The notes beneath the pieces are model-generated. The model had not been told where the DNA came from. It saw only the letters and a program-made list of their open reading frames with translations, and made no database searches. A DNA stretch of 64,000 nucleotides from Planctomycetota bacterium (GTDB lineage Bacteria > Planctomycetota > MHYJ01 > WSZJ01): contig JBBTCT010000016.1 in assembly GCA_038060895.1 (NCBI GenBank), positions 4,020 through 68,019 of the forward strand, written 5' to 3'. Of this stretch, positions 4,610-15,174 are shown in pieces. The position numbers were made by a program, and so were the translations under genes. Within the stretch, counting starts at the first letter, position 1, and the number at the start of each line of letters is the position of its first letter.

Positions 4610-5062
4610 TCAGTTGACGTTCAGGATCACTTCCGGCGCCACGTTCACATCGAGCCAGTAGTTGGCGACCGAGCGAAGCGACCTCCCGAATTCGTCGAAG
4701 TCGATTTCCTTCCTCACGTAACCATTGGCGCCCGCTTCGTAGCTCGCGGCCACGTCCCGCTCTTCCACCGACGACGTCAGAACCACTGCGGGGATGTGCT
4801 TCGTCAGTGGGTCCTTTCGCAGGGCCCGCAAGACTTCGTGCCCGTGGCTTCGCGCCAGTTTCAGGTCCACCAGGACCAGCGCCGGCGTCAGTTTCCGGTC
4901 TCTCTCTTCCCACGCCCCTTTCGCGTGCACGAAGTCCATCGCCTCTTCGACGTCCTTCACCGCCACGCAGAGGTGGGGCACTCCTTCTTTTCGGAGCGCC
5001 CGCTGCACGAGGTCCTGATGGTCCGGATTGTCCTCAACGAGCAGGATGATCTTTCCGAGCAA
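4610..5062 (-). CDS. Single-domain response regulator (Rcp1-like)
   Basis: ILLVEDN, LVLVDLKL, VLTSS, GANGYVRK; TTG start at 5062 with a GGGGAG RBS. Confidence 0.9.
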   Translation of the reverse strand: MLGKIILLVEDNPDHQDLVQRALRKEGVPHLCVAVKDVEEAMDFVHAKGAWEERDRKLTPALVLVDLKLARSHGHEVLRALRKDPLTKHIPAVVLTSSVEERDVAASYEAGANGYVRKEIDFDEFGRSLRSVANYWLDVNVAPEVILNVN

Positions 5063-6734
5063 GTGGATTCTCCCCTGAGAGACTGAAAAATATCGTGGCG
5101 CCCTTCCCGGTCGCGCCCTCCGCGCGGATCCTGCCCCCGTGACGTTCCACGATCCTGCGCGCGGTGGCAAGTCCGATGCCGTGCCCCGGGAACCGCGGGT
5201 CGTCGTGGAGGCGGTGGAAGGGCCGGAACAGGCGGTCGCGGGCGGCCCCGGAATCGAAGCCGGCGCCGTTGTCGCGGACGAAGAACTCGCCGTCCCGGAT
5301 CGTGCCGAATTCGACGAGTGGAGCCGGCGTTGCGGAGGTGAATTTCCACGCGTTCTCGAGCAGGTTTCGCAGGAGAACGCGCAGCAGCGGAGCGTCGCCC
5401 TGCGCCGGGAGGCCCGGCTCGACGCGGCAGGTGACCTGCCGACCCGGGTTGGCCAGGGTGATCTGGTCGGCAACCTCCTGCGCCAACCCGCTCAAGTCCA
5501 CCTTTCCCGAATGCATTTCGGCCCGCGACAGGCGGGACAGCTCGAGCAGGCTTTCGAGAATCTCGCCCATCTGCTTTGCCGATGACCGGACGCGCCTCAG
5601 GTGCGCTTTCGCCGCTTCTCCCCCCTCCTCGAGGGCCGCCGCCGCGAATCCGTCGATGGTCTGAAGTGGGCCCCTCAGGTCGTGGGAGATGGAGTAGCAA
5701 AAGGCCTCGAGTTCCTCGTTTGCGGCGGACAGCTGGGCGGTGCGGTGTCGAACGCTGGACTCCAGCTGGCGATTCAGCCGCGCGAGCGAACGTTCCGCGC
5801 GTCGCCGGCGGCCGTCGAGCGTGGCGAGCCGGTTGGCCAGCAGCAAGGTGGCGATCGACATGGCCCCGATGACGGTCACCACCACCGCGGCGGATGAGAA
5901 CTGGGCGCCGTACCACCCTCGATGTTGCCCGAACAGGATCGCCAGGCCGCCGATCGTCGGGACGCCCAGGGCGCCCGGAATCATCCGCCGGGCCATGAAC
6001 CCTGCCGACCCGCGCGCGGCGACGACGCGCAGCGCGCCGCGCCGCGAGTTGAACAGAAGGGCGCCCGCCGAGAGGGAAAGGAAACCGGCTGCCGTATGCA
6101 CCGCCTGCTGCGTGGTGTGAAACGTGACCGGGCTGTCGGCGGGGACGTCGAACAGGTTCCCGATGAGGGAGAGAAGCGCGATCATGCCTGCCGGCAGCGC
6201 AAGGGAATCCGCCAGCCGGCTCGCGAGCCGGGAATCTCCTCCTGCGAGGGGAAGCGCGACACCCAGGAGCACAAAATTCAGGGCCGTGGTGGGCGCCATG
6301 CGTCCGGGGAGGTAGGGGAGCCCCGGACCGATGTCGCGTGCCAGGGCCTGATCGATCCCGAAGCTCGCTCCGAGCGCGAACTCGAGAAGCGTCAACAAAC
6401 CAAGTCCGGCCGCGGCGCTGCCCAGCACGATTGCGGCAAGCCGAAGCCGGGTCCAACCTGCGGCCAACATCACCAGGACAAGCCCCTCCGCCATCATCGC
6501 GGTCGCCGTGTTCACCTTCATCGTCGCCGCACCCGGCAGCACGCTTTTCAGCGCATCGACGCCCAGGATCCATCCCGCGAGACCCGTGCAGCCGATGATC
6601 GCCGCGAACACGCCGAGCGCCAGCGACCAGCGCCGGATCCGGTAGGCCGACTCCGCTTCCGCCACAACCCGTGCCATCCCACCCCCGTTGACGGCGACAT
6701 CCGAAAACACTCGCGCCCCCGTCGGAAGTGCCAA
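5034..6734 (-). CDS. Membrane sensor histidine kinase
   Basis: Several N-terminal TM helices, H-box SHDLRGPL, N-box NLLENAWKF, DNGAGF, GIGLA; the true start may be downstream (MARVVAE). Confidence 0.92.
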   Translation of the reverse strand: MALPTGARVFSDVAVNGGGMARVVAEAESAYRIRRWSLALGVFAAIIGCTGLAGWILGVDALKSVLPGAATMKVNTATAMMAEGLVLVMLAAGWTRLRLAAIVLGSAAAGLGLLTLLEFALGASFGIDQALARDIGPGLPYLPGRMAPTTALNFVLLGVALPLAGGDSRLASRLADSLALPAGMIALLSLIGNLFDVPADSPVTFHTTQQAVHTAAGFLSLSAGALLFNSRRGALRVVAARGSAGFMARRMIPGALGVPTIGGLAILFGQHRGWYGAQFSSAAVVVTVIGAMSIATLLLANRLATLDGRRRRAERSLARLNRQLESSVRHRTAQLSAANEELEAFCYSISHDLRGPLQTIDGFAAAALEEGGEAAKAHLRRVRSSAKQMGEILESLLELSRLSRAEMHSGKVDLSGLAQEVADQITLANPGRQVTCRVEPGLPAQGDAPLLRVLLRNLLENAWKFTSATPAPLVEFGTIRDGEFFVRDNGAGFDSGAARDRLFRPFHRLHDDPRFPGHGIGLATARRIVERHGGRIRAEGATGKGATIFFSLSGENPLARKDHPAR

Positions 6735-6867
6735 CGGAGGCGCGAAAGTGTAACTCAGGTATCATGGAGCGTACGACCCGCCAGCCCGGGGACTCAACGT
6801 GGGGCCGTCAAATCCTGGGCAGGCGGGTGTACTCACCCCCCCCTCGGGGAAGAAGGGGGGTTTTTAA

Positions 6868-8508
6868 TTACCTGGGTTCCGGCGCAGTGCCTTCCCAGTA
6901 AGCCTTGTAGCGGGGCCACGCGGTCACGGCGATCTTCCGGCCCAGCTTCAGGCCATCCTCGTTGTCCACGCGGATGTGATAGCCGCCCAGCATGCGCGAT
7001 TCCGCAGCCATCTCCGCCGTGGATGAGAAAGTCGGCAGGGCAAGGTCCATCTCGCGTGAAGTGGGAATATCCGTGGCCGGGACCCCTTCGTTGGCCTGCA
7101 TTTCGTAGGTCGTGCAGCTAGCCTCGGTCAATTCACCGGCCATGCGCTTGGCGACGAACTCGAAGCGATCGCTTCCACTGAACAACTCCAGGATCTTGGC
7201 GGAGCCACCGCTGACAGTCGCGTGGCCGGAGGGATAACCCGGGAACGGCGGGGTCACGAATGTGTCCGGCGAGTAGGGATGCCATTCCTCGGCCGGGATC
7301 GTCTTGAAGCCCTGGCACGGACCTGCGTATCCCTTCACTTTCTTGCCCTTGTAAAACCACCGCACGTACCAGTACGGGCGGGACGAATCGAAGAAGTACT
7401 TCTCCTCCCAGCAGACCACGAACGCATCGTGGGCGATGGCCGAGATGCTGAAGAACAGTTTCACGTCCTGGTCGAGATCGTAGTTATCGCGGCGGGAGAG
7501 GTCCTGCGCGAAGCGGAGCCAGTGACCCGACTGTCCCGTGGAGCGAGGGCCGTCGCGCATGAATTCAACGATGGACTTCTGGCGAAGTGAAAGCGTTGCG
7601 TTCGCCTCGATGCACTCGTCAACTTCCTTCTTCATCTGCTCGGAGTTCGCCTTGGGCGGCCCGGGCAGGCGGAACTGCTCGCAATTGTCGATGCCGACCA
7701 TTTTGACGTTTTTCCAGTGAGGCGTCAGGCCGGGCGGGGTGATGCGGGGGGCTTTCGGGTCCTTCGGGTCCGCGAACGAGATCTGCATCCAGTGATCCGG
7801 ATCCTGCTCCTGGCCGTAGGCGCGAGCGGGTTTGTAGCCGGAGGTGTCGGAGTAAGGCTTCCCGCTCGAACCCTTGTCGTCGCCGAGCTGGTTGGCGCCG
7901 TCGCGATGGCGGTACTCGATGAGGGCGGCGGCGACGGTGTTGCCGACGCCTTCGGGTTTGGAGCAGTCCATCGACTTGTTGGCGGGATCGACGCCGAACT
8001 TCTTGCTGACCGTCTCGTGGATCCAGGCGACGTCCTCGGGGTAGACGTCTTCCAGGCAGCGGGTCACGGCGTAGGCAATGGCTTTTTCCTTATTGGCCTT
8101 GGTGCGTTCGGCCTCGGGACGGCGGTTCTTCCCGCCGAGACGCGTGCCGACGGCTTTCGCGTCGTAGCAGGCCCAGGCGTCGAACATGCCGGTGCAGGAG
8201 ATCACCATTTCGCGCGCGATGATGGTGGGCTTGGCAGCAGTGCGATCGACGCGCCGGGCGGCGGTCTCGAGAATCATTTCAAGCCAGGCGTAAGCGGCCG
8301 ACGGATTGGCGTGCGGGACGGCGTGGATGGGCCACTTCGAAGTGTCGGCGCTCGTTTCCCATGAGTAGCCCGATTTGCCGCCGCCGGCTTTGTCTCCGTT
8401 TTCGTCCGGGCCGGTTTCCCCGTTGTCGGCGCAGCCGGCGCCGAAGGCAGAGCCCAGTGCGGCGAGGGTGATGCCACGCCAGAAGTGGCGCGAAGCGAAC
8501 TTTAGCAC
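6868..8508 (-). CDS. Vanadium-dependent haloperoxidase/PAP2 family lipoprotein
   Basis: K-x6-RP (KYFFDSSRP), PPFPGYPSGH, SRMLGGYH; lipobox-like FGAGC; GTG start at 8508 after AAGGAGG. Confidence 0.85.
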   Translation of the reverse strand: MLKFASRHFWRGITLAALGSAFGAGCADNGETGPDENGDKAGGGKSGYSWETSADTSKWPIHAVPHANPSAAYAWLEMILETAARRVDRTAAKPTIIAREMVISCTGMFDAWACYDAKAVGTRLGGKNRRPEAERTKANKEKAIAYAVTRCLEDVYPEDVAWIHETVSKKFGVDPANKSMDCSKPEGVGNTVAAALIEYRHRDGANQLGDDKGSSGKPYSDTSGYKPARAYGQEQDPDHWMQISFADPKDPKAPRITPPGLTPHWKNVKMVGIDNCEQFRLPGPPKANSEQMKKEVDECIEANATLSLRQKSIVEFMRDGPRSTGQSGHWLRFAQDLSRRDNYDLDQDVKLFFSISAIAHDAFVVCWEEKYFFDSSRPYWYVRWFYKGKKVKGYAGPCQGFKTIPAEEWHPYSPDTFVTPPFPGYPSGHATVSGGSAKILELFSGSDRFEFVAKRMAGELTEASCTTYEMQANEGVPATDIPTSREMDLALPTFSSTAEMAAESRMLGGYHIRVDNEDGLKLGRKIAVTAWPRYKAYWEGTAPEPR

Positions 8509-8761
8509 GGATCCTCCTTGGTAAAAGACTATGAATCTAGTTGGTATTCTCATGACTAGCAGGCGTGGAAACGTAGCAAGGGCGCGATCAGAATTCAAGG
8601 CAATGTTTGGAATAGGAGTATGTGATGTATTACATCGGCATATACCTTGCATTCCATCGCCGCTTGACCTGGCCTTGACTCCCGCCAACACCGCCCCCCA
8701 TCGCATTCGCTGGTGGTCACTCACTTCCTGTTCGAATTGTTCTCCCATCCGATATTTCCTG

Positions 8762-8789
8762 TTGACTTCCGTTCCGTCCGCACTATCCT
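8762..8789 (+). promoter_or_regulatory. Sigma70-like promoter for the riboswitch leader
   Basis: TTGACT-N16-TATCCT about 20 nt upstream of the aptamer-like sequence. Confidence 0.5.
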
Positions 8790-8807
8790 CTGCTCCCTGA
8801 CAACTCG

Positions 8808-8860
8808 GTCACGTGGGATTTGCGGCGTATTGCAGCCACGCTAAAAACTGCTAAAAAGCT
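8808..8860 (+). ncRNA. SAM-II (SAM_alpha-type) riboswitch aptamer
   Basis: P1 CGTGG/CCACG enclosing GATTTG...TATTGCAG, followed by an A-rich linker and GCTAAAAAG; matches the SAM-II H-type pseudoknot consensus as I recall it. Confidence 0.82.
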
Positions 8861-8877
8861 CCCCGGGCTATCCCGGG

Positions 8878-8917
8878 AAAAACCGCTTCGCCGCCCATTG
8901 CGAAGCGGTTTTTTTTT
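8878..8917 (+). terminator. Intrinsic terminator (riboswitch expression platform)
   Basis: AAAAACCGCTTCGC-loop-GCGAAGCGG followed by T9, between the aptamer and the ATG at 8964. Confidence 0.85.
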
Positions 8918-8963
8918 CGACCTGTCCCCGCCGCGGGGATGGCGACGGAGACGGGAGATACGG

Positions 8964-9485
8964 ATGACCACCGAAATTACGCTCGACCGCATTCGCCGGC
9001 GCTGGACAGCCTGGGTCGCCGCCGGCCGGAACCGCGACGGTTTCTCCCGCATCGTCGCCCGCGGCTTCGACGACGTCCTCGGCCTCTGCGGAGCCAAATG
9101 CTGGGAACGCGTCGACGCGAAACCCGGCGACGTCCTTTTCCTCGACCGCGACCTCACCGTCCAGTGGTACCGCGACTCCATCCCGAACTTCGAGAGCCTC
9201 GTCGAGTCGGTCGGCGCGCTCGGCGCTCTCTCTCCCGATGGGCCGCTTCAGACGTCCGATGGTGATGAAACATGGTCCTACACGCTCGCTCTCATCGCCG
9301 AAAAATCCCTCGCGTGGCTGGCGCAGGGACAGCCGGGCCGCGCCGAGCTGCTCGTCGCTCTCGCGCGCGTGAAATCGATCCTCCACAAGCACGATGAGGC
9401 CGCGGACCTCCACGCAGAGGCCCGCAAGGCGTGGGACAAGGGAACAAGGGGAAAGCGAAAGGGGCAGGGCCGCGTGGCGATGTGA
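8964..9485 (+). CDS. Hypothetical protein with C-terminal TPR-like helices
   Basis: ATG 8964 with GGGAG RBS, typical high-GC codon usage; no family recognised. Confidence 0.7.
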   Translation: MTTEITLDRIRRRWTAWVAAGRNRDGFSRIVARGFDDVLGLCGAKCWERVDAKPGDVLFLDRDLTVQWYRDSIPNFESLVESVGALGALSPDGPLQTSDGDETWSYTLALIAEKSLAWLAQGQPGRAELLVALARVKSILHKHDEAADLHAEARKAWDKGTRGKRKGQGRVAM

Positions 9486-9552
9486 CCGTCGGCCGCCGTG
9501 CCCGTCCTGTTTCGCTGCCGTTCCCTTTCACCAATTCCCAGGAGCCCACCCC

Positions 9553-9828
9553 ATGCCCGTCCTCGAAGTCACCAACGAAACCGTCTGCTCCGCGTGCGGC
9601 GCTTCCCGATGCGCCCACGACGCCGTCCTGTCCCGCCTGCTCGGTTGCGAGGAAGCGGGCCTCTGCTTCGGCTGCCTCGCGTTCAGTTTCGGCGTCGAGG
9701 AAGCGAGATTTGCGACCGGCGCAGTCGCTCACCTTCGCAAAAAGTCGTGCCTGTGGTTATCCTTCGACCGCGCCGCGGGGTGCGATTGCGCCCTGGATCG
9801 CGCGAGACGAAGGGAGGAGAGCGCTTGA
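9553..9828 (+). CDS. Small Cys-rich putative metal-binding protein
   Basis: CAGGAG RBS; CSAC-x4-CAH, CFGC, C and CDC motifs in 91 aa. Confidence 0.75.
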   Translation: MPVLEVTNETVCSACGASRCAHDAVLSRLLGCEEAGLCFGCLAFSFGVEEARFATGAVAHLRKKSCLWLSFDRAAGCDCALDRARRREESA

Positions 9829-10007
9829 AGCGTCGCGGGAAGAAGCAAGTCGAGACGGACCAGTACGAGCCGATCCCCGTGGAGCAGGCGGCGGAGCCGG
9901 GGTTCATCGTTCCGAAAAGCTGGAGCGAGGAGGAGATCCTCGACGCGATGAAGGCGTTCGAGGAGCAACTTCGGAGAGAACGCGGACTGCCGCCGAGCCG
10001 GCCTTGA
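9825..10007 (+). CDS. Small hypothetical protein (60 aa)
   Basis: TTG start overlapping the upstream stop (TTGA), strong GGGAGGAG RBS. Confidence 0.6.
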   Translation: MKRRGKKQVETDQYEPIPVEQAAEPGFIVPKSWSEEEILDAMKAFEEQLRRERGLPPSRP

Positions 10008-10059
10008 CGCTCGGCGAACCAGGGCACGTCGCCGCGAAGATAAGCGAATCGGGAGCAAT

Positions 10060-10788
10060 TTACTTTCTCGGGTAAAACGTCTTGTGCATCTCGAGCAGCC
10101 GCTTCAGTTCCTCGATCGGTTTCGCGTGGTCCTCGACGCGGATGTCGATCCAGCGGTCGTTGAATCCGGCGTAGCCGCCCTTTTCACGGACGACGAGCAG
10201 GGAGGCGGACTGCATGCCGCGCTTGTCGCCGCCCTTGGACTGCGCGGCTTCGAGCGCCGCGACGAGGCGGTCGCCGAGTTCGCCCGTGGAGGATTTCCAG
10301 CTTGCCTCCATGGCAGTCACGACGTCCTCGCCGGCGAGGATGTTCCCCTGGACTGCGTAGTTTTCGCCGTTGCGGCCTCCCGCGAAGGCCATGCACTTCT
10401 TGCCTGTGAACGATGCCGAGCGGCCCCTGGCGTCCACGATTCCGGCCTGGCGAGTTGCGGATTCGTCGTCGGCGCCCGTCAACGCCTTCATCACGTCCGC
10501 GGGCGAGTCGCCCTTCGCGAGCAGATCGAGCCCCTTCGGACCGTAGGTCGTGTTCGCGTACGACTGCGTTGCGACGGCGCCCACGCCCGCTTTCGCCCAC
10601 GGGACGACGGAGCCGACGCCGAAGAATTTCGACTGGACCGCGATGCCGAGGTCGCCGGTGTCGGGGTCGCGCGCGACGATGGAAAATGTGGCGACGACGC
10701 GGTTGTTCGACCCGGCACGGTCTTGCGGCAACAGGAGCGCGAGCGCCAGCACGGCGGCGAACGGAAAGGCGTAAGCGGCGCGCTTCAT
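10060..10788 (-). CDS. DUF1028 family Ntn-hydrolase-like protein, exported
   Basis: TFSIVARD, GAVATQS, QGNIL, GGDKRG.QSA motifs after a signal peptide. Confidence 0.9.
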   Translation of the reverse strand: MKRAAYAFPFAAVLALALLLPQDRAGSNNRVVATFSIVARDPDTGDLGIAVQSKFFGVGSVVPWAKAGVGAVATQSYANTTYGPKGLDLLAKGDSPADVMKALTGADDESATRQAGIVDARGRSASFTGKKCMAFAGGRNGENYAVQGNILAGEDVVTAMEASWKSSTGELGDRLVAALEAAQSKGGDKRGMQSASLLVVREKGGYAGFNDRWIDIRVEDHAKPIEELKRLLEMHKTFYPRK

Positions 10789-10805
10789 GGGTTGCTCCGG
10801 GCCGG

Positions 10806-12083
10806 CTACTTCTCCCACTTCCCGTCGCGATACCTCGTGAAACCGTCCGCCAGAACGGCGCGGTCATACGCCTCCGCCACCGAGGGGACGACCTCGTAGG
10901 GCTTCTGGCCCTTGATGCAGTTGGTGACTTCGATGAGGAAGAGCTGGATCTTGTCTTTGGGTGGGGGATTGGCCGGTGGAGCGTATTTGATTCCCTGGCA
11001 TGTCCCGCAGGGCGTCTTCCCGCCGCAGCACGGCGGTTGCCCCACGATCGAAACAACGCTGTTGAGGCCTCCCCGGCGGGTGTATTTGATGAGATCGATC
11101 TCGGTTTTGAGGGCGTCGGCCTCGTGCCCCGCCGTTGCGCGGACGGTCCTGTGCGTGCTCAGGTTGGAGATGTAGATCCAGATGTCGCGCTCGGCCTTGC
11201 ACTTCACGCAGAGCAGATCTCCCAGTCCGTAGCAGGTGCGGCAGACGCTGTCGCAGAACCCCGACTCTCCCTTGCCGGCCGCGAACCCCTTCTTGGATCC
11301 GGTCCCGCCGCAGACGCCGCACTTCAGCATCGCGGCGCCGTCGCAAGCCGGGCACTTCGCCTCAGCCGTGCCGGCGCAGTTCTTGCACATGACGCGCCGG
11401 GCGATATCGCGGGCCAGGTCGTCCACCGACATCCCCATGACCGCCGGGGCGTCTTCGCTTTTCGCAAGAGTGCCGGCCTTCTGGAGTTTCGGAAGAGCCT
11501 CTTCAAACCGGTCCTGCATGACGAGGTCAAGGGCGGCGGAGAGCTGCTCCATTTCCTTCCGTGCCTCGTCCACGAGTCCCTGGCGCATGTCGTCGAGCCG
11601 GATGCGCGCTTCCGGGTTGCCGGGCTTGGCGAATTTTGCGCGGGCGTAACAGAGTGCGGCTTCGCGACGCATACCCAGGGGCTCGACGGTTTTTCCCAGC
11701 AGCATCTGCGCGTCGAAGGCGAGGTTCGTGTCGAGTTTGGAAGCGATGGCGCAGAGGCGGCGCAGGGTGGGGAGGTCGTAGGCGTCCTTTCCCTTTCCGG
11801 TCAGCCAGTTCGCGAGGGCGAGGTAATCGGCGGGTTTTGCGGGATCGAGGGCGGCCAGTTTCTGCTCGCGCTCCTGGAGGGCGCCGCCGGCCTGTCGCTC
11901 GACGGAGGCTACCTGATCTTTCTGGAAGGTGAGCGTGGCCTTGGCGGTCTTGATCTTGACGGAGGTGTCGTTGTCGTCGAGGACGACGCCTTCGTAGGTG
12001 CGGCCGTCCTTGAGGACGACCTTGTCGGCGAATGAAACGGCGGCCAGGGCGAGGCAGAGGGCGGCGAGGCGGAGGAGTCGCAT
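10806..12083 (-). CDS. Exported protein with DnaJ-type CxxCxGxG zinc-finger repeats
   Basis: Signal peptide, DKVVLKDGR N-terminal domain, helical middle, six CxxC motifs; GAGGA RBS. Confidence 0.8.
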   Translation of the reverse strand: MRLLRLAALCLALAAVSFADKVVLKDGRTYEGVVLDDNDTSVKIKTAKATLTFQKDQVASVERQAGGALQEREQKLAALDPAKPADYLALANWLTGKGKDAYDLPTLRRLCAIASKLDTNLAFDAQMLLGKTVEPLGMRREAALCYARAKFAKPGNPEARIRLDDMRQGLVDEARKEMEQLSAALDLVMQDRFEEALPKLQKAGTLAKSEDAPAVMGMSVDDLARDIARRVMCKNCAGTAEAKCPACDGAAMLKCGVCGGTGSKKGFAAGKGESGFCDSVCRTCYGLGDLLCVKCKAERDIWIYISNLSTHRTVRATAGHEADALKTEIDLIKYTRRGGLNSVVSIVGQPPCCGGKTPCGTCQGIKYAPPANPPPKDKIQLFLIEVTNCIKGQKPYEVVPSVAEAYDRAVLADGFTRYRDGKWEK

Positions 12084-12214
12084 TGTGTTCCTCGGAGGAA
12101 AGGGGCCAATTCGGACATCGGAGAGGATACCAAGGCGAGGTGGTCTGACGGAGCGCAAGCGTGCGTTCGTCTCATCTGGCTGAGCCGATGAATCGGCCGT
12201 TCGTACATAGGTAT

Positions 12215-12235
12215 TTACGATCCTAATCATCGTAA
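12215..12235. promoter_or_regulatory. Palindromic operator-like site in a divergent promoter region
   Basis: TTACGAT-N7-ATCGTAA perfect inverted repeat in an AT-rich patch. Confidence 0.45.
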
Positions 12236-12296
12236 TTCATCGGCTATCCTGCGCGCGTCCGGGGAACGCCTCACTCACTCATTTTCGGAGGGGAAG

Positions 12297-13586
12297 ATGA
12301 ATCACCTGCGTACGCTCGCAGCGATTGCCGCACTCGCCGGTTTCGCGTCGGCCCAGGCGCCGTCCGAGAGGGACAAGGAGCTCGACGAACTCAAGAACCG
12401 GGTGGATGCGCTCGAGAAAGAAAAGAAGGCGGGAGGAGACACCCCAGGCTGGAAGGACCTCGTCTCCCTCGGCGGTCACCTCAAGTGGTACGGCTTTCTT
12501 CGCCTCGATTGCCACTACACCGACTCCGCTTTCGACAACGCGCGTTTTCCGACCTTCGTCCGCGCCGAGGAGAACATCCCGTTCCTCGCCGGCACCTCGG
12601 CCCCTGAACGCAATGACGACAATTTCGTCGCCAGCGCGCGCCTCACGCGCCTCGGGTTCGACATCGACTCCGGCAAGATCGAAAGCCTGGGCGACGCTTC
12701 CGCCAGCGGCAAACTGGAAATCGACTTTTTCTCGCTTCCGAGCTCCGAAAGCCGCGCCGTGCCCCGCATGCGGCACGCGTACGGAAAGGTCGGCTGGAAC
12801 TGGCTGTACGTGCTTTTCGGCCAGACCTCCGATATGGCCTCTCCGCTCAACCCGAGCCTGAACCCCGACAACGTGCTCTGGAACTGGGGCAACACGGGCG
12901 ACCGTCGCCCGCAGGTCCGGCTCGTCTCCGAACCGACCGTCGGTGAGAAGCTGAAGTTCTACTTCGGCATCATGGCCGGGCAGGAAGGCGCCATCCGGAA
13001 CGTGGACACAGACGCGCTGGGTGTCCTCGACGGCGACGACTCCGGCTGGCCCAAGATGGAAGCCCGCGTCGCGATCAGCTACCAGAACTGGGTCGAGAAG
13101 AAGTGGATCACGCTGGGCATTTCCGGCATGACGAGCGAAGAGCAGGTGGACGGCGCCGGCATCGGCGGCAGGCACATCTTCCGCACCGACATGTGGGCCG
13201 TGGACTTTGAGTTCCCGATCCTGGCGCAGCTCTCCTTCCGGATGGAGTACTGGCGCGGCCGGAACCTCGCGGACATCCGCGGCGGCATCGGCCAGACGGT
13301 CCTTGCCGACGGCAGCGACATCCGTGCGAGCGGCGGCTGGGCCGAGCTCAAGTTCTCGCCGGTCAAGTTCTACGCCGCCACGGTCGGCTACTCCCGCGAC
13401 AACCCGCACGAGCGTCACCTGCCGTTCGGCGCCCGCTCGGAAAACACCGTGTACTACCTCATGAACACCTTCACGTTCGACCCGTTCCTGGTGTCGATCG
13501 ACATCTCCCACTGGCGCACGGAATTCGTCGGCCTGAACGCCGGGCGCGCGTGGCGGTACACGCTCACCCTGCAACTGTCGTTCTAG
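12297..13586 (+). CDS. DcaP-like outer membrane porin
   Basis: Signal peptide, coiled coil, YGFLRLD, SARLTRLG, LEIDF, PRMRHAY, FGQT, C-terminal Phe. Confidence 0.8.
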   Translation: MNHLRTLAAIAALAGFASAQAPSERDKELDELKNRVDALEKEKKAGGDTPGWKDLVSLGGHLKWYGFLRLDCHYTDSAFDNARFPTFVRAEENIPFLAGTSAPERNDDNFVASARLTRLGFDIDSGKIESLGDASASGKLEIDFFSLPSSESRAVPRMRHAYGKVGWNWLYVLFGQTSDMASPLNPSLNPDNVLWNWGNTGDRRPQVRLVSEPTVGEKLKFYFGIMAGQEGAIRNVDTDALGVLDGDDSGWPKMEARVAISYQNWVEKKWITLGISGMTSEEQVDGAGIGGRHIFRTDMWAVDFEFPILAQLSFRMEYWRGRNLADIRGGIGQTVLADGSDIRASGGWAELKFSPVKFYAATVGYSRDNPHERHLPFGARSENTVYYLMNTFTFDPFLVSIDISHWRTEFVGLNAGRAWRYTLTLQLSF

Positions 13587-13755
13587 ACTTCCCCTGAGGG
13601 GCCGCGCGCCCGCCGTAACGGGGTGCGCGGCCTCTTGTCTCTCCGGGAAGTTCCAGGCCAGGGCCCCGGCAGGCGCTGGCCCTTGCCCCAGATGAGGGCG
13701 ACGAACTTCGCTGCCTTCACGTATGCTCCCCCCCTCAAACTCCCAGGAGACTCCC

Positions 13756-15174
13756 ATGCGCCTTCGCACCACAATCCTGCTCGCCCTGCTCGCGATCCCC
13801 GCCGCCGCGGACGACGTCCGCGCGAAGGTGGATGAGTTCATCAAGGAATGCACGGGGGAACAGAACTGGGAGAAGAAGCAGAAGCTGCTCAACGCGCTGC
13901 GCCGCACAGCGGGTTCGGCGAAAGTCTTCCTGGAGGCCGTCGCCGCCCGCGAGGACCTGGAGCAGTCATCGTGGAACCTGGCGAGCGCAGCGCAGCCGCT
14001 GCTCGACCAGAAGCGCGACGAGATCGAGGCGCCGGTCAAGGAGCTTCTGAAGAGCCCGGACCCGAAGCAGGCGCGGTTCGCCATTCTCGTCGTCCAGCAC
14101 GCGGGACTCACGGGCGCGCTGGCGGGCGAGCTTCTCGCCCTGGCCGCTTCGCCCAACTCCGACGCAGCCGGCTCCGCCTCCATGGCCCTCTCCTCGTCGC
14201 GCGACTCGCGGGTCGTCGCTCTTCTTATCACGGAGTCCGCTGCCGCAGGCGACCGCGGCGTGCGCGGACTCCGCATGCTGGCTTCCACGGGCGCCCCCGC
14301 GGGGCTCGAGAAGTTGCGCGCGGTGGTGGGGGACGCAAAGGAACCGGAGGATCGCAGGGCGGAAGCTCTGAGCGGCCTGAACCGACAGCCGGCGCCCGCC
14401 GACGTGGCGCTGGCGAAATCGGTCCTCGCAGAAAAACTCGAGCGGCTGGAAGACCCGGCCATCAACCTCCTCATCAACGCGCGTGCGACGATCCCGGCCG
14501 CAGACCTGAAGGCGCTTCGCCGCAAGGGCGACGAGTGGCGCGAGTCGATGATCGACAAGCTGCTCTCGCTCGCGGGAGACGAAGAAGGCGCCAAGGCGTG
14601 CCTGCGGCGGGCGCACGGCGGCTCCGAGTGGGATCGCGTGGAGTGGTACGCGTGGGCCGGGCGCTCGGGAATTCAGGAAATCGGCGCGAAGATGGTGAAA
14701 GAACTCGGCGAGGAAACGAACGACGACGTGCGAATGGGGATCCTGATCGGGATCGGCGAGTGCGGCGATCCCGCTTGCGCCGACATCCTCGCGAAGTACC
14801 TGACGCATCCGCAGAAGGGAAACCAGGCGATGAAAGCGCTCGCCATGCTGGCGCGGCGGACGCCGGCGGCGATGGACGCGGTCCTCGACAAGATGGCGGA
14901 GGTCACGGGGACATCGATGTGCGGCATCGACTCCTTTCCCTACTCCTACCTCGAAGGCGCGACCGGCGCCAACCGCGCGCAGCTCTTCGATGGCTACTTG
15001 CGGCTCCTCGTACGCGTGAACGACCGACCGCGGTTGCGGGAAGCGACGCTGAGGACTCTATCGGAAATGGCGCGCCCCGAGTTTGACTGGAGCGAGGACG
15101 CGCTGGAGAGGTGGACGGCCTGGTGGAAGGTGAATCGCGAGACGTTTGAGAAGAGCCCGCCGAAGCCGAGGTAG
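13756..15174 (+). CDS. Exported HEAT-repeat protein
   Basis: Signal peptide, repeated alpha-helical HEAT-like units, W-x-x-WW C-terminal motif; CAGGAG RBS. Confidence 0.75.
   Translation: MRLRTTILLALLAIPAAADDVRAKVDEFIKECTGEQNWEKKQKLLNALRRTAGSAKVFLEAVAAREDLEQSSWNLASAAQPLLDQKRDEIEAPVKELLKSPDPKQARFAILVVQHAGLTGALAGELLALAASPNSDAAGSASMALSSSRDSRVVALLITESAAAGDRGVRGLRMLASTGAPAGLEKLRAVVGDAKEPEDRRAEALSGLNRQPAPADVALAKSVLAEKLERLEDPAINLLINARATIPAADLKALRRKGDEWRESMIDKLLSLAGDEEGAKACLRRAHGGSEWDRVEWYAWAGRSGIQEIGAKMVKELGEETNDDVRMGILIGIGECGDPACADILAKYLTHPQKGNQAMKALAMLARRTPAAMDAVLDKMAEVTGTSMCGIDSFPYSYLEGATGANRAQLFDGYLRLLVRVNDRPRLREATLRTLSEMARPEFDWSEDALERWTAWWKVNRETFEKSPPKPR

Follow-up and report, generated by a model that had tools for sequence, protein, structure and literature searches.

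A SAM-II-class aptamer and an intrinsic terminator precede three uncharacterised genes in a planctomycete

Why should an RNA of the SAM-II type stand ahead of three genes, none of which encodes a recognizable methionine enzyme? The question was raised by a preliminary description of the window, the stretch of 64,000 nucleotides from a Planctomycetota bacterium analyzed here (assembly GCA_038060895.1, contig JBBTCT010000016.1, positions 4,020 to 68,019), which proposed either an undescribed SAM/sulfur-responsive operon or a stand-alone RNA. The former is still the best reading, and it has gained a new lead in ORF2, which is homologous to a domain found at the N terminus of TusA fusion proteins. 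The class of the RNA is known and its regulon is new, and this regulon may be linked to sulfur. As a whole, the locus is likely to be a SAM-repressed transcriptional riboswitch over the ORF1-3 operon.

The sequence elements listed in that description (promoter-like site, aptamer parts, hairpins, T9, and ORFs) were all found in place, in the order promoter-like site, aptamer, small hairpin, intrinsic terminator with nine U, and three coding ORFs (Table 1). In a promoter scan, for which shuffles gave 0.4, the promoter-like site was the sole match in 7500-11000; no second one was found in 8790-11000, hence none separate for ORF1-3.

Table 1. Features of the locus, in window coordinates
Feature	Position	Strand	Sequence or basis
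Promoter-like site	8762..8789	+	TTGACT (-35), N16 spacer, TATCCT (-10)
SAM-II-class aptamer, H-type pseudoknot (SAM-II/SAM-V type)	8812..8860	+	RF00521/RF01726 scores, covariation, ligand-contact nucleotides
P1	8812-8816 with 8836-8840	+	CGTGG with CCACG; sequence, RNAfold
Triplex third strand	8817-8822	+	GATTTG (GAUUUG); sequence
Aptamer loop segment	8823-8827	+	CGGCG; sequence
P2a	8824-8826 (5' strand) with 8858-8860	+	C8826-G8858, G8825-C8859, G8824-U8860
P2b, 5' strand	8828-8835	+	UAUUGC(AG): TATTGC 8828-8833, AG 8834-8835; UAUUGC pairs with GCUAAAAA 8850-8857
Linker	8841-8849	+	CTAAAAACT
P2b, 3' strand	8850-8858	+	GCTAAAAAG (RNA GCUAAAAAG)
Small hairpin	8862..8877	+	CCCGGG-CTAT-CCCGGG (RNA loop CUAU); RNAfold; directly 3' of pseudoknot strand
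Intrinsic terminator	8878..8917	+	A5, 9-bp G+C-rich stem, 8-nt loop, U9 (8909-8917)
Terminator stem	8883-8891 with 8900-8908	+	CCGCTTCGC with GCGAAGCGG
Candidate antiterminator partner	8889..8894	+	CGCCGC, from the 5' arm into the loop of the terminator; complement of GCGGCG 8822-8827 (aptamer loop)
ORF1 (P0001), 173 aa	8964..9485	+	Orphan protein; weak TPR-like C-terminal part
ORF2 (P0002), 91 aa	9553..9828	+	Cys-rich; corresponds, as a stand-alone protein, to the N-terminal domain of TusA fusions
ORF3 (P0003), 60 aa	9825..10007	+	TTG start, 4-nt overlap with ORF2 stop, preceded by GGAGGAG

Positions 8812-8860 of the forward strand are a genuine SAM-II-class aptamer. RF00521 matches them over its full length with 27.1 bits, so that the proposed covariance-model check gave a significant E value (2.3e-4 in a search of 301 nt, 9.9e-4 in one of the complete 5.4-Mb genome) but a score below the gathering score of 36, which is why a gathering-level Rfam scan of the whole window returned no match. 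RF01726 gave 26.4 bits against a gathering score of 44, and RF01826 (SAM-V) was absent among the window matches at E <= 10. A near-identical orthologue from the genus (L003/L141), different in a few bases, scores 36.3 bits with RF00521, at or above the cut-off. Our custom model R1 gave the window 57.5 bits, which is not independent evidence because the window row sits in its alignment. Rfam matches with E values of 0.13-9.4 (Phe_leader, anti-hemB, DUF3800-IX, RNAI, and others) were read as matches to the terminator hairpin only and dropped.

All of the contact nucleotides given in a structure description of SAM-V (PMC6061858) are present in the window, including those that touch SAM at its adenine, its amino-acid end, or its sulfonium: U8/U9/U10 correspond to 8819-8821, A18 U19 U20 G21 to 8829-8832, and C46 U47 A48 A49 A50 to 8851-8855. 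The same description portrays the ligand site of the SAM-V crystal structure as closely resembling that of metX SAM-II, and we expect the window aptamer to bind SAM. The structure predicted by RNAfold contains P1, the small hairpin, and a terminator hairpin of 14 bp. Its energy of -48.1 kcal/mol (z = -3.07) was equalled by none of 200 shuffles.

The wider family was gathered with a pattern fixing GATTTG, TATTGC, and GCTAAAAAG, and the invariance of these columns is due to that ascertainment; pseudoknot pair 22:64 and pair 21:65 lie in columns outside those set by the pattern. Among 131 members, pair 22:64 is GC in 77, CG in 48, GU in 3, AU in 2, and another combination in 1, and pair 21:65 takes six standard types (GC 45, CG 21, GU 18, AU 10, UA 9, UG 1; other 27). 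Their covariation score was reached by 0 of 500 shuffles, and slid controls went down to 31-51% paired. P1 and P2a both covary in the family. For P1, 89% of cells are paired on the model-fitted alignment, with changes on both sides in 5 of 5 pairs (0/500 shuffles), and 78.6% on a MAFFT alignment in which about 20 rows are out of register by 1 nt. The RF00521 match, the contact nucleotides, and this covariation, with a promoter-like site before and an intrinsic terminator after, bear out the original recognition of a SAM-II-type aptamer.

The accompanying picture of SAM-II as an essentially proteobacterial element has to be given up. In our survey, SAM-II-type aptamers with a SAM-V-like core were widespread outside Proteobacteria, the same core being common in Gemmatimonadota, Latescibacterota, Marinimicrobia, Ignavibacteriota, and further phyla. 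Of 18 pattern-defined loci from other phyla, 7 reach the RF00521 cut-off in cmscan and 1 more reaches that of RF01726; with 8/18 loci tested at a cut-off, current Rfam thresholds miss more than half. Non-proteobacterial relatives precede metH, metY, metB-like, metK, thrB/thrC-like, hom, ahcY, and panB genes. The first downstream ORFs in other lineages (n = 126) comprise S-methyl_trans (43), Cys_Met_Meta_PP (31), PALP (12), SAM synthetase (8), GHMP kinase (5), Pantoate_transf (5), homoserine dehydrogenase (2), and AdoHcyase (1), and the gene association in the window differs from that of every other family member examined. A pattern match in Paenibacillus (L085) lies inside apparent coding sequence and was excluded from the RNA alignments.

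Judged from these searches, few Planctomycetota carry this type of aptamer, and its closest counterparts are metY leaders of Ignavibacteriota/Bacteroidota. The custom model found it in 2 of 151 sampled Planctomycetota genomes, and SAM-I was present in 20 of 151; the portion of PMC2864571 available to us contains no report of SAM-II in this phylum. RF00521 matches in 8 other Planctomycetota genomes (L010-L018, E values of 7e-4 to 0.04) were judged to be false positives: they are without the GAUUUG/UUGC/GCUAAA motifs, the sequence around them reads as coding, and, within the sample common to both searches, the custom model matched none of these genomes. In a member of another Planctomycetota family (G068), two aptamer-terminator units lie in tandem behind a promoter-like site and point toward a convergent Iso_dh gene at its 3' end; the strand of these units holds no convincing ORF. 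The genome of the window also carries a SAM-I riboswitch, located upstream of hom.

Within the genus, the arrangement is well conserved, as the whole unit was found in 6 of the 7 other genomes. In 7 congeneric genomes, the leader hardly changes between the -10 hexamer and the U-tract; TTGAC of the -35 element, the T and A of the -10 element, the terminator stem, and the U-tract are all kept, and variation is seen in the promoter spacer and the terminator loop. The small hairpin shows compensatory changes (CCCGGG/CCCGGG, CCGGGG/CCCCGG, and CGGGGG/CCCCCG). ORF1 orthologues behind the same RNA share 49-94% identity. It had been suggested that ORF1 homologues be checked for SAM riboswitches or neighboring met/cys genes. 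In 7 of 7 congeneric loci with the RNA, it stands before ORF1 and ORF2; in the window, no SAM, Met, or Cys enzyme was found in the operon or adjoining it. A VCPO/PAP2-like protein, a DUF1028 protein, and a histidine kinase flank the operon, and Pfam gave no match for the flanking ORFs 4960-6765(-), 5922-7118(+), 10413-12032(+), 10809-12230(-), 12282-14594(-), and 12297-13583(+).

The downstream proteins, as had been noted at the outset, resemble no Met enzyme: ORF1-3 have no match to a Met/SAM family in Pfam or NCBIfam, and tblastn against 158 loci found them in the genus only. All three ORFs have a GC3 coding pattern, with GC by codon position of 0.69/0.50/0.82 in ORF1, which starts 46 nt past the U-tract with GGGAGA 6 nt upstream of its ATG. 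A word-indexed search gave 7 relatives of ORF1, all at genus level and none outside, a profile search of PDB sequences gave nothing (best E = 9.9), and the Atlas offered TPR-like leads only, below 0.9; the AlphaFold2 model was not used for a fold search because of its pLDDT of 58.9. ORF3 is less conserved, with a tblastn match in 3 of 6 other congeneric loci (E <= 1e-3).

ORF2 proved more informative. In our sequence comparisons, it is homologous to the Cys-rich N-terminal domain in fusion proteins of about 190-240 aa that carry TusA (PF01206), such as P0015, P0017, P0024, P0027, and L166:1231-1794. ORF2 aligns over most of its length and keeps the arrangement CxxC-x4-C-x-H ... CxxC ... C, and BLASTP gave E = 8e-11 with the N-terminal part of P0027 and 3e-9 with that of P0024. 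A phmmer search of 1.84 billion representatives found 7 relatives (E of 2e-31 to 6.8e-4), 2 of which carry TusA, and a profile search found 22 proteins, 14 of them with PF01206. In a 12-row alignment, C12, C15, C20, H22, C38, C41, and C66 are invariant; P0027, outside this alignment, has Ser at the C20 position. Unlike the fusion proteins, ORF2 has no TusA domain, nor any Pfam match at E <= 0.1, PF01206 being carried by its fused relatives only. The N-terminal domain has no Pfam or NCBIfam model, and PDB searches yielded no solved relative: Foldseek with ORF2 returned nothing at E <= 0.001 (best E = 4.2), and matches of the ORF2 profile to PDB sequences were confined to the TusA part of fused rows. 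The nearest Atlas clusters are without a name. In the congeneric genome G007, the gene of such a TusA fusion precedes a DsrE-like gene and a TusA-OsmC gene. This one gene neighborhood and the domain fusion are the basis on which ORF2 may be connected to sulfur, and we offer the connection as a lead.

How, then, might the aptamer act on these genes? The terminator platform had been regarded as unusual for SAM-II. In the literature, however, it is named as the commonest platform, and a hairpin with a T-run is present in 83 of 135 family instances; a terminator-antiterminator mechanism for SAM-II is described in published accounts (PMC2258182, PMC9373788, and PMC4239095 with PMC5473149). The terminator hairpin alone is predicted at -21.0 kcal/mol, and the simple terminator scan did not list 8878-8917 because a stem through A5/U5 leaves too few U for its rule. 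As a candidate antiterminator, we propose that GCGGCG of the aptamer loop pairs with CGCCGC, which reaches from the 5' arm of the terminator into its loop. CGCCGC is the same throughout the genus, also where it falls within the otherwise variable loop, and the minimum free energy (MFE) structure of the transcript 8796-8899 pairs it with GCGGCG. Only 6 bp of this antiterminator are conserved in the genus. In the family, a perfect downstream complement of at least 6 nt to the loop segment occurs in 22.8% of 136 instances, kin among which are not independent, versus a mean of 3.8% and a maximum of 7.7% in 200 permutations. A scheme in which the tail pairs with the terminator reached 19.1%, with controls at 14.5% on average and 18.9% at most, and is not clearly enriched across the family; an alternative antiterminator of this kind, linker AAAAACUGC with GCGGUUUUU on the 3' side of the terminator (-11.7 kcal/mol), was set aside.

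Considering these data, we propose the following model for a SAM-repressed riboswitch over ORF1-3. Transcription would start a few bases past the -10 hexamer, at about 8796, and the first 50-65 nt would fold into the aptamer, in which the 3' tail GCUAAAAAGCU engages the loop of the P1 hairpin to form a pseudoknot with a U-A.U major-groove triplex that houses SAM. With SAM bound, GCGGCG and the tail would be locked in the pseudoknot, the hairpin with its U9 would form, and transcription would stop 46 nt ahead of ORF1, leaving a leader of about 120 nt. At low SAM, the loop would be free to pair with CGCCGC and delay the folding of the terminator, allowing read-through into ORF1-ORF2-ORF3. Since bound SAM would mean termination and scarce SAM read-through, the predicted direction of regulation is OFF. 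The cargo would be a genus-specific operon without a Met enzyme, encoding a 173-aa orphan, a 91-aa Cys/His-rich protein, and a 60-aa protein, and may serve in sulfur or metal handling needed at low SAM. The aptamer was probably acquired horizontally and then wired to this operon.

The proposed control of termination has to be weighed against a constitutive attenuator, with the aptamer modulating, e.g., RNA stability or processing. The loop-arm duplex, at -14.5 kcal/mol, is weaker than the terminator hairpin, and the full-length MFE structure always keeps the terminator; termination could therefore be largely constitutive, as reported for Sinorhizobium meliloti metA, where PMC9373788 describes a validated terminator 3' of the SAM-II aptamer, no predictable riboswitch-driven antiterminator, and RNAs stabilized by SAM binding. 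The conservation of CGCCGC within a variable loop and the enrichment of loop complements in the family argue otherwise, however, and folding during transcription up to 8899 is predicted to favor the loop-arm helix, so that we think a purely constitutive terminator quite improbable. Far less probable still is that the RNA, although SAM-II-like, responds to a ligand other than SAM, e.g., SAH or a metabolite derived from SAM. This would account for a cargo without Met genes and could be read into the singular gene association and the Rfam score under threshold, but every SAM-contacting nucleotide of the SAM-V structure is present, and only a few bases separate the aptamer from the metY leaders of Ignavibacteriota/Bacteroidota.

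It is also conceivable, though unlikely, that the terminated leader of about 120 nt is the main product, a SAM-binding small RNA acting in trans or as a SAM buffer, with ORF1-3 as incidental read-through. The tandem units of G068 without a convincing ORF would fit such a role, as would the strength of the terminator here (-21 kcal/mol, U9) and, by analogy, the terminated SAM-II leaders of S. meliloti, which accumulate as the sRNAs RZ and RA1/RA2 and for which a role in trans was proposed (PMC9373788). Public RNA data add little, as two metatranscriptome runs hold only small parts of the region (shares of 0.08 and 0.05). A 154-nt contig covers 9367-9520 with 0 differences, and a second contig, of 203 nt, matches 8796-8915 with 2 differences, has flanks that are unlike, and therefore comes from a relative; that its match spans just the leader is weak support for a leader product, since both matches are contigs, from which RNA ends, strand, and level are not readable and in which DNA carry-over is possible. 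Against this stand ORF1 with its ribosome-binding site 46 nt past the U-tract, the synteny of RNA, ORF1, and ORF2 in 7 of 7 congeneric loci with the RNA, the lack of a separate promoter-like site for the ORFs in our scan, and the occurrence of the same RNA type with a terminator directly upstream of Met/SAM genes in other phyla, which is classical cis control. A stand-alone RNA is thus less parsimonious at this locus than a cis-regulated operon. A role for the leader RNA and control in cis are compatible with each other.

A broader scenario can be drawn, which we put forward as speculation with a modest chance of being right. A genus that uses SAM-I at hom would have captured an FCB-group SAM-II element, probably by horizontal transfer, and thereby made a three-gene module SAM-repressible, with ORF2 at the core of a new accessory system under SAM control, for sulfur relay or metal clusters, that feeds the metabolism of sulfur amino acids; the unit might in addition be an autonomous SAM-sensing small RNA. 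The last idea was prompted by the ORF-less tandem units of G068.

The RNA itself is textbook, and the locus therefore leaves the understanding of SAM-II riboswitches unchanged. Its value is that of a pointer, in that three uncharacterised proteins are singled out as SAM-responsive by a riboswitch whose ligand is known. One of the three belongs to a family of Cys-rich domains that has no name and shows repeated fusion to TusA. Riboswitches have guided the assignment of function to orphan genes before, and here they supply a hypothesis for an unannotated domain, namely, sulfur or metal handling under SAM limitation.

Set beside known SAM riboswitches, the window element belongs with SAM-II and SAM-V, two types that are described as forming a single general class (McCown et al. 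2017, PMC5473149). With SAM-II (RF00521, SAM_alpha; Agrobacterium metA and S. meliloti metZ), it has in common the H-type pseudoknot with P1, the GAUUUG third strand, the UUGC ... GCUAAA P2b, a covarying P2a, and presumably the OFF logic, as well as the intrinsic terminator, which is predicted for metZ and most alpha- and betaproteobacterial members in the accounts of PMC2258182 and PMC9373788. It differs from SAM-II in its score (27.1 versus a cut-off of 36), its short loop with a 5-nt variable segment, its planctomycete host, its P2b core, which is UAUUGC/GCUAAAAAG as in SAM-V instead of GCUUGC/GCUAAAGAG, and its cargo, which includes none of the hom/metA/metX/metY/metC/metW genes given as the SAM-II regulon in PMC4239095. 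SAM-V (RF01826, 'Candidatus Pelagibacter' metY/bhmT) has a triplex and ligand-site nucleotides identical to those of the window, as far as described in PMC6061858; its P3 stem between P1 and the tail, however, hides the ribosome-binding site for translational control, whereas the window has no P3 at that place and uses a terminator platform. SAM-II elements of the FCB group and other non-proteobacterial lineages share with it the core pattern, the 3-bp covarying P2a, and frequent terminators, and they occur in tandem copies, as in G068. In the window and in the Ignavibacteriota/Bacteroidota metY leaders alike, no spacer base separates GUGG from GAUUUG and the linker AAAAACU is present, and the two differ in few bases overall; yet the non-proteobacterial elements precede genes of the Met/SAM type, whereas that of the window precedes three orphan genes.

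On sequence grounds, the RNA in the window is a real SAM-II riboswitch with a terminator, located ahead of genes that do not encode Met enzymes. The elements listed in the preliminary description, from the promoter-like site through the aptamer parts, the hairpin and the terminator with its T9 to the three ORFs, are all present in the sequence as read, and that observation is confirmed. The interpretation attached to it was partly right: a SAM-II riboswitch on a terminator with non-Met genes downstream holds, the terminator as an oddity does not. The promoter-like match is the only one in 7500-11000 (0.4 in shuffles). In the RNAfold prediction P1, the hairpin stem of the aptamer, forms along with the small hairpin, and the terminator hairpin extends to 14 bp; the leader fold energy is -48.1 kcal/mol (z = -3.07; 0 of 200 shuffles fold equally well). 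A simple terminator scan missed this terminator because five U residues are swallowed by the stem.

Coordinates of the riboswitch leader, its downstream ORFs and the SAM-I riboswitch of the same genome (G000)
Feature	Position	Strand	Details
Promoter-like TTGACT-N16-TATCCT	8762-8789	+	sequence
Aptamer part CGTGG	8812-8816	+	sequence
Aptamer part GATTTG	8817-8822	+	sequence
Aptamer part CGGCG	8823-8827	+	sequence
Aptamer part TATTGC	8828-8833	+	sequence; AG directly after
Aptamer part CCACG	8836-8840	+	sequence
Aptamer part CTAAAAACT	8841-8849	+	sequence
Aptamer part GCTAAAAAG	8850-8858	+	sequence
Small hairpin CCCGGG-CTAT-CCCGGG	8862-8877	+	sequence, RNAfold
Terminator stem-loop	8883-8908	+	A5 run, then 9-bp G+C-rich stem and 8-nt loop
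T9 of terminator	8909-8917	+	
ORF1	8964-9485	+	173 aa; GC by codon position 0.69/0.50/0.82
ORF2	9553-9828	+	91 aa; GC by codon position 0.63/0.58/0.77
ORF3	9825-10007	+	60 aa; GC by codon position 0.67/0.43/0.82
SAM-I riboswitch (RF00162, 87 bits) with terminator	G000:C14:49643-49746 (locus L162, 1501-1604)	+	before hom
hom (homoserine dehydrogenase)	L162:1658-2968		downstream of SAM-I

An Rfam scan of the whole window at gathering thresholds returned no match. When 8700-9000 was searched again with E-value reporting, the two best matches were full length: RF00521 SAM_alpha at 27.1 bits (E = 2.3e-4), short of its cut-off of 36, and the long-loop SAM-II model RF01726 at 26.4 bits (cut-off 44). 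The covariance-model check proposed earlier gave a full-length match below threshold. Across the whole 5.4-Mb genome the element is the sole credible RF00521 match (E = 9.9e-4; next, E = 8.9); of the genus's seven other genomes, six also have it, one copy scoring 36.3 bits and so reaching the cut-off. The ligand site can be compared with that of SAM-V, which PMC6061858 describes, from a crystal structure, as closely similar to metX SAM-II: U47 pairs with the SAM adenine and also bonds U8, the sulfonium is turned to O4 of U9 and O4 of U20 within a U20:A48.U9 triple, a further triple is formed by U19:A49.U10, A50, paired with A18, bonds the amino-acid end, and G21 stacks on the ligand. Mapped onto that structure, all contact nucleotides have counterparts in the window (U8-U10, 8819-8821; A18-G21, 8829-8832; C46-A50, 8851-8855), and an apparent A.A mismatch between 8829 and 8855 corresponds to the known A18:A50 pair. 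The claim of a SAM-II-type aptamer is borne out by this intact contact set, by covariation and by the Met/SAM gene context of its relatives.

Covariation was read from A2, a 131-row MAFFT alignment in which three blocks are fixed by the search pattern, making their invariance uninformative. Among columns not so fixed, the pseudoknot pair 22:64 occurs as GC in 77 rows, CG in 48, GU in 3, AU in 2 and other in 1, and pair 21:65 as GC in 45, CG in 21, GU in 18, AU in 10, UA in 9, UG in 1 and other in 27. Pseudoknot pairing stands at 87.9% and falls to 31-51% once the partner is slid; the observed covariation score was reached by 0 of 500 shuffles. In A2 the spacer-less rows slip by 1 nt in register, which blurs P1; on A6, an alignment fitted to our custom covariance model R1 and leaning towards its structure, P1 is 89% paired and five of five pairs change on both sides. 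R1 was built with the window row included, and its 57.5 bits for the window are not independent. Within the genus, seven aligned leaders hardly differ downstream of the -10 hexamer as far as the U-tract; the spacer of the promoter and the loop of the terminator do vary, and the small hairpin carries compensatory changes (CCCGGG/CCCGGG, CCGGGG/CCCCGG, CGGGGG/CCCCCG). Since identity of the orthologues falls to 49% for ORF1 and 65% for ORF2, this pattern indicates purifying selection on the leader RNA.

The preliminary description had SAM-II aptamers as best known from Proteobacteria, which is too narrow: the same core was matched in Gemmatimonadota, Latescibacterota, Marinimicrobia, Ignavibacteriota and others, and the SAM-II-type family, judged by these matches, reaches far beyond that phylum. 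Scanning one genome per species with GATTTG-N5-TATTGC-N8-25-GCTAAAAAG gave at least 120 stretches; among the matches listed, most are from Gemmatimonadota, others being from Latescibacterota, Marinimicrobia, Fidelibacterota, Ignavibacteriota, Calditrichota, Fermentibacteria relatives, Omnitrophota, Spirochaetota, Tectimicrobiota and Pelagibacter. A second pattern, GTGGGATTTG..., written for the form that lacks the spacer, yielded 23 stretches: seven in Planctomycetota, one in Gemmatimonadales and the rest in Ignavibacteriota and Bacteroidota. For each element the downstream gene was the longest ORF with a start no more than 450 nt beyond it, cut to 350 aa; six genus loci and L092 (which contains an N) were left out, and five instances (L047, L077, L099, L121, L124), four of them with at most 154 nt left before their locus ends, had no ORF of at least 60 aa. 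Among the matches listed, the 126 ORFs carry Homocysteine S-methyltransferase (43), Cys_Met_Meta_PP (31), PALP (12), SAM synthetase (8), GHMP kinase (5), Ketopantoate hydroxymethyltransferase (5), Homoserine dehydrogenase (2) and AdoHcy hydrolase (1) domains, so gene context likewise marks the class as a SAM sensor. The ketopantoate hydroxymethyltransferase gene panB, not a classical SAM-regulon gene, lies behind five elements in Gemmatimonadota (L021, L046, L116 and two further loci). Of 18 loci compared with Rfam, seven had a pattern element at or above the cut-off of RF00521 and one at or above that of RF01726; in ten the element fell below all gathering scores (Omnitrophota, Spirochaetales, Entotheonella, Ignavibacteriota, Bacteroidota, Longimicrobiales, Comamonadaceae, the planctomycete G068 from another family, and the first aptamer of a Pelagibacter SAM-II/SAM-V tandem). 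At current Rfam thresholds this short class is under-detected (ten of these 18 loci).

A platform of the terminator type is nothing unusual in this class and, in the literature, is the most frequent one for SAM-II. A perfect stem of at least 6 bp with a T-run within 110 nt occurs in 83 of 135 distinct family instances, and Scheuer et al. (2022, PMC9373788) state such a platform for 'many' SAM-II aptamers and predict one for S. meliloti metZ. The beta-proteobacterial 'metXZ' element is a terminator-antiterminator according to PMC4239095, and was later stated, in PMC5473149, to consist of canonical SAM-II members. In the window, CGCCGC (8889-8894), spanning the 5' arm and loop of the terminator, is the exact complement of the aptamer-loop GCGGCG (8822-8827) and stays constant across the genus, including the part that falls in the otherwise variable terminator loop. 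For a transcript ending at 8899, the minimum free energy structure pairs the two and opens P1; adding the 3' arm shifts the fold to the terminator (-42.6 and -48.1 kcal/mol), the loop-arm duplex being worth -14.5 and the terminator hairpin -21.0 kcal/mol. A perfect complement of at least 6 nt to the loop segment, no more than 87 nt downstream, occurs in 22.8% of 136 family instances, compared with a mean of 3.8% and a maximum of 7.7% in 200 permuted pairings (47% versus 21% at 5 nt or more), in a test that treats kin as if they were independent, which they are not. A second small hairpin, TCCCCGCCGCGGGGA, lies between the terminator and ORF1 (8926-8940, + strand); it again has CGCCGC, and its conservation in the genus is only partial.

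We propose that bound SAM would lock loop and tail in the pseudoknot and let the terminator form, and that in its absence the loop would hold the 5' arm of the terminator long enough for read-through. By the modeled energy balance, termination could also be largely constitutive, as in S. meliloti metA. A rival reading makes the terminator constitutive and has the aptamer act on RNA stability. A ligand other than SAM is unlikely because the SAM site is intact. The terminated leader could itself be the functional product, for which the S. meliloti riboswitch sRNAs are a precedent and tandem aptamer-terminator units without an ORF in G068 a parallel; the strict synteny of the RNA with ORF1 and ORF2 disfavors this as the main role, and a functional terminated leader would in any case be compatible with control in cis. 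In G068 (L005, also L149, 1341-1521, - strand), a promoter-like TTGACT-N17-TATCAT leads into two such units, which have trxA-trxB-like genes before them and run towards the 3' end of a convergent Iso_dh gene; their strand holds no convincing ORF. Candidate readings are a stand-alone riboswitch RNA, an antisense transcript gated by the riboswitch, and regulation of a very small ORF.

The three ORFs alike have a coding GC pattern and a Shine-Dalgarno-like sequence ahead of them, ORF3 starting with TTG in a 4-nt overlap with the ORF2 stop. That none resembles a Met enzyme, as first described, holds. ORF1 has a sub-threshold Pfam match to TPR_12 alone (E = 0.011), seven relatives, all genus-level, a poor model (pLDDT 58.9) and Atlas leads that are TPR-like and below 0.9; ORF3 has no match, and tblastn recovers it in three of six other genus loci. 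For ORF2, phmmer against 1.84 billion representatives gave seven matches, two with a C-terminal TusA domain. Another of the seven, P0014 (1166 aa), matches the Cys-rich part of ORF2 in 12 stretches; its Pfam matches are to zf-tcix, a treble-clef zinc finger, and to the C-terminal family of TNP-like RNase H. In ORF2, the CxxC...CxH stretch near the N terminus may resemble a zinc ribbon. A profile search found 22 proteins, 14 with PF01206 and several that their source calls 'tRNA 2-thiouridine synthesizing protein A', the scores of TusA proteins being inflated by TusA columns from two fused rows. ORF2 alone matches the N-terminal parts of the TusA fusion proteins P0027 (E = 8e-11) and P0024 (E = 3e-9). 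C12, C15, C20, H22, C38, C41 and C66 are invariant in a 12-row alignment; P0027 has Ser in place of the third Cys. The AlphaFold2 model is all-helical and confident (pLDDT 88.1), and Foldseek found no solved relative. G007, the sole congeneric genome without riboswitch and ORF1 (87% complete), has a sulfur-relay-like cluster (L166, 144-1794, - strand), in which TusA is fused to an ORF2-like Cys-rich domain and the next genes are a DsrE-like one and a TusA-OsmC fusion, in that order. From the fused relatives, the N-terminal similarity and this cluster, we read ORF2 as probably a stand-alone version of a Cys/His-rich domain, still unnamed, that partners TusA sulfur carriers. Repressing such a protein by SAM would make physiological sense, and the unusual cargo may be linked to sulfur.

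The operon neighbors, a divergent DUF6851/VCPO-like protein, a convergent DUF1028 protein and a histidine kinase, give no further functional hint. The divergent gene (6868-8748, - strand; 626 aa, DUF6851 plus vanadium-chloroperoxidase-like/PAP2) is syntenic with the riboswitch operon in five of seven genus loci, window included. In 151 sampled Planctomycetota genomes, the custom model finds the aptamer in two, G000 and G068, and RF00162 (SAM-I) is found in 20, 19 of them above cut-off. With SAM-I before hom and SAM-II before ORF1 to ORF3, G000 would use the former for a Met-pathway gene and the latter for an orphan operon, and the two classes coexist in one genome; a 2007 survey had reported no species with both (PMC2258182).

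In five Ignavibacteriota/Bacteroidota leaders (L114, L131, L142, L143, L148) a second SAM-II-type aptamer lies about 35-165 nt upstream of the first; these tandems escaped the DNA pattern and showed as second matches in the model-fitted alignment. The window element belongs to a known riboswitch class in an unusual phylum with unusual cargo. The planctomycete aptamers are most like the metY leaders of Ignavibacteriota and Bacteroidota: both lack the spacer base and have the AAAAACU linker, and tandem copies occur in those leaders and in G068, likenesses that suggest horizontal acquisition of the planctomycete aptamer.
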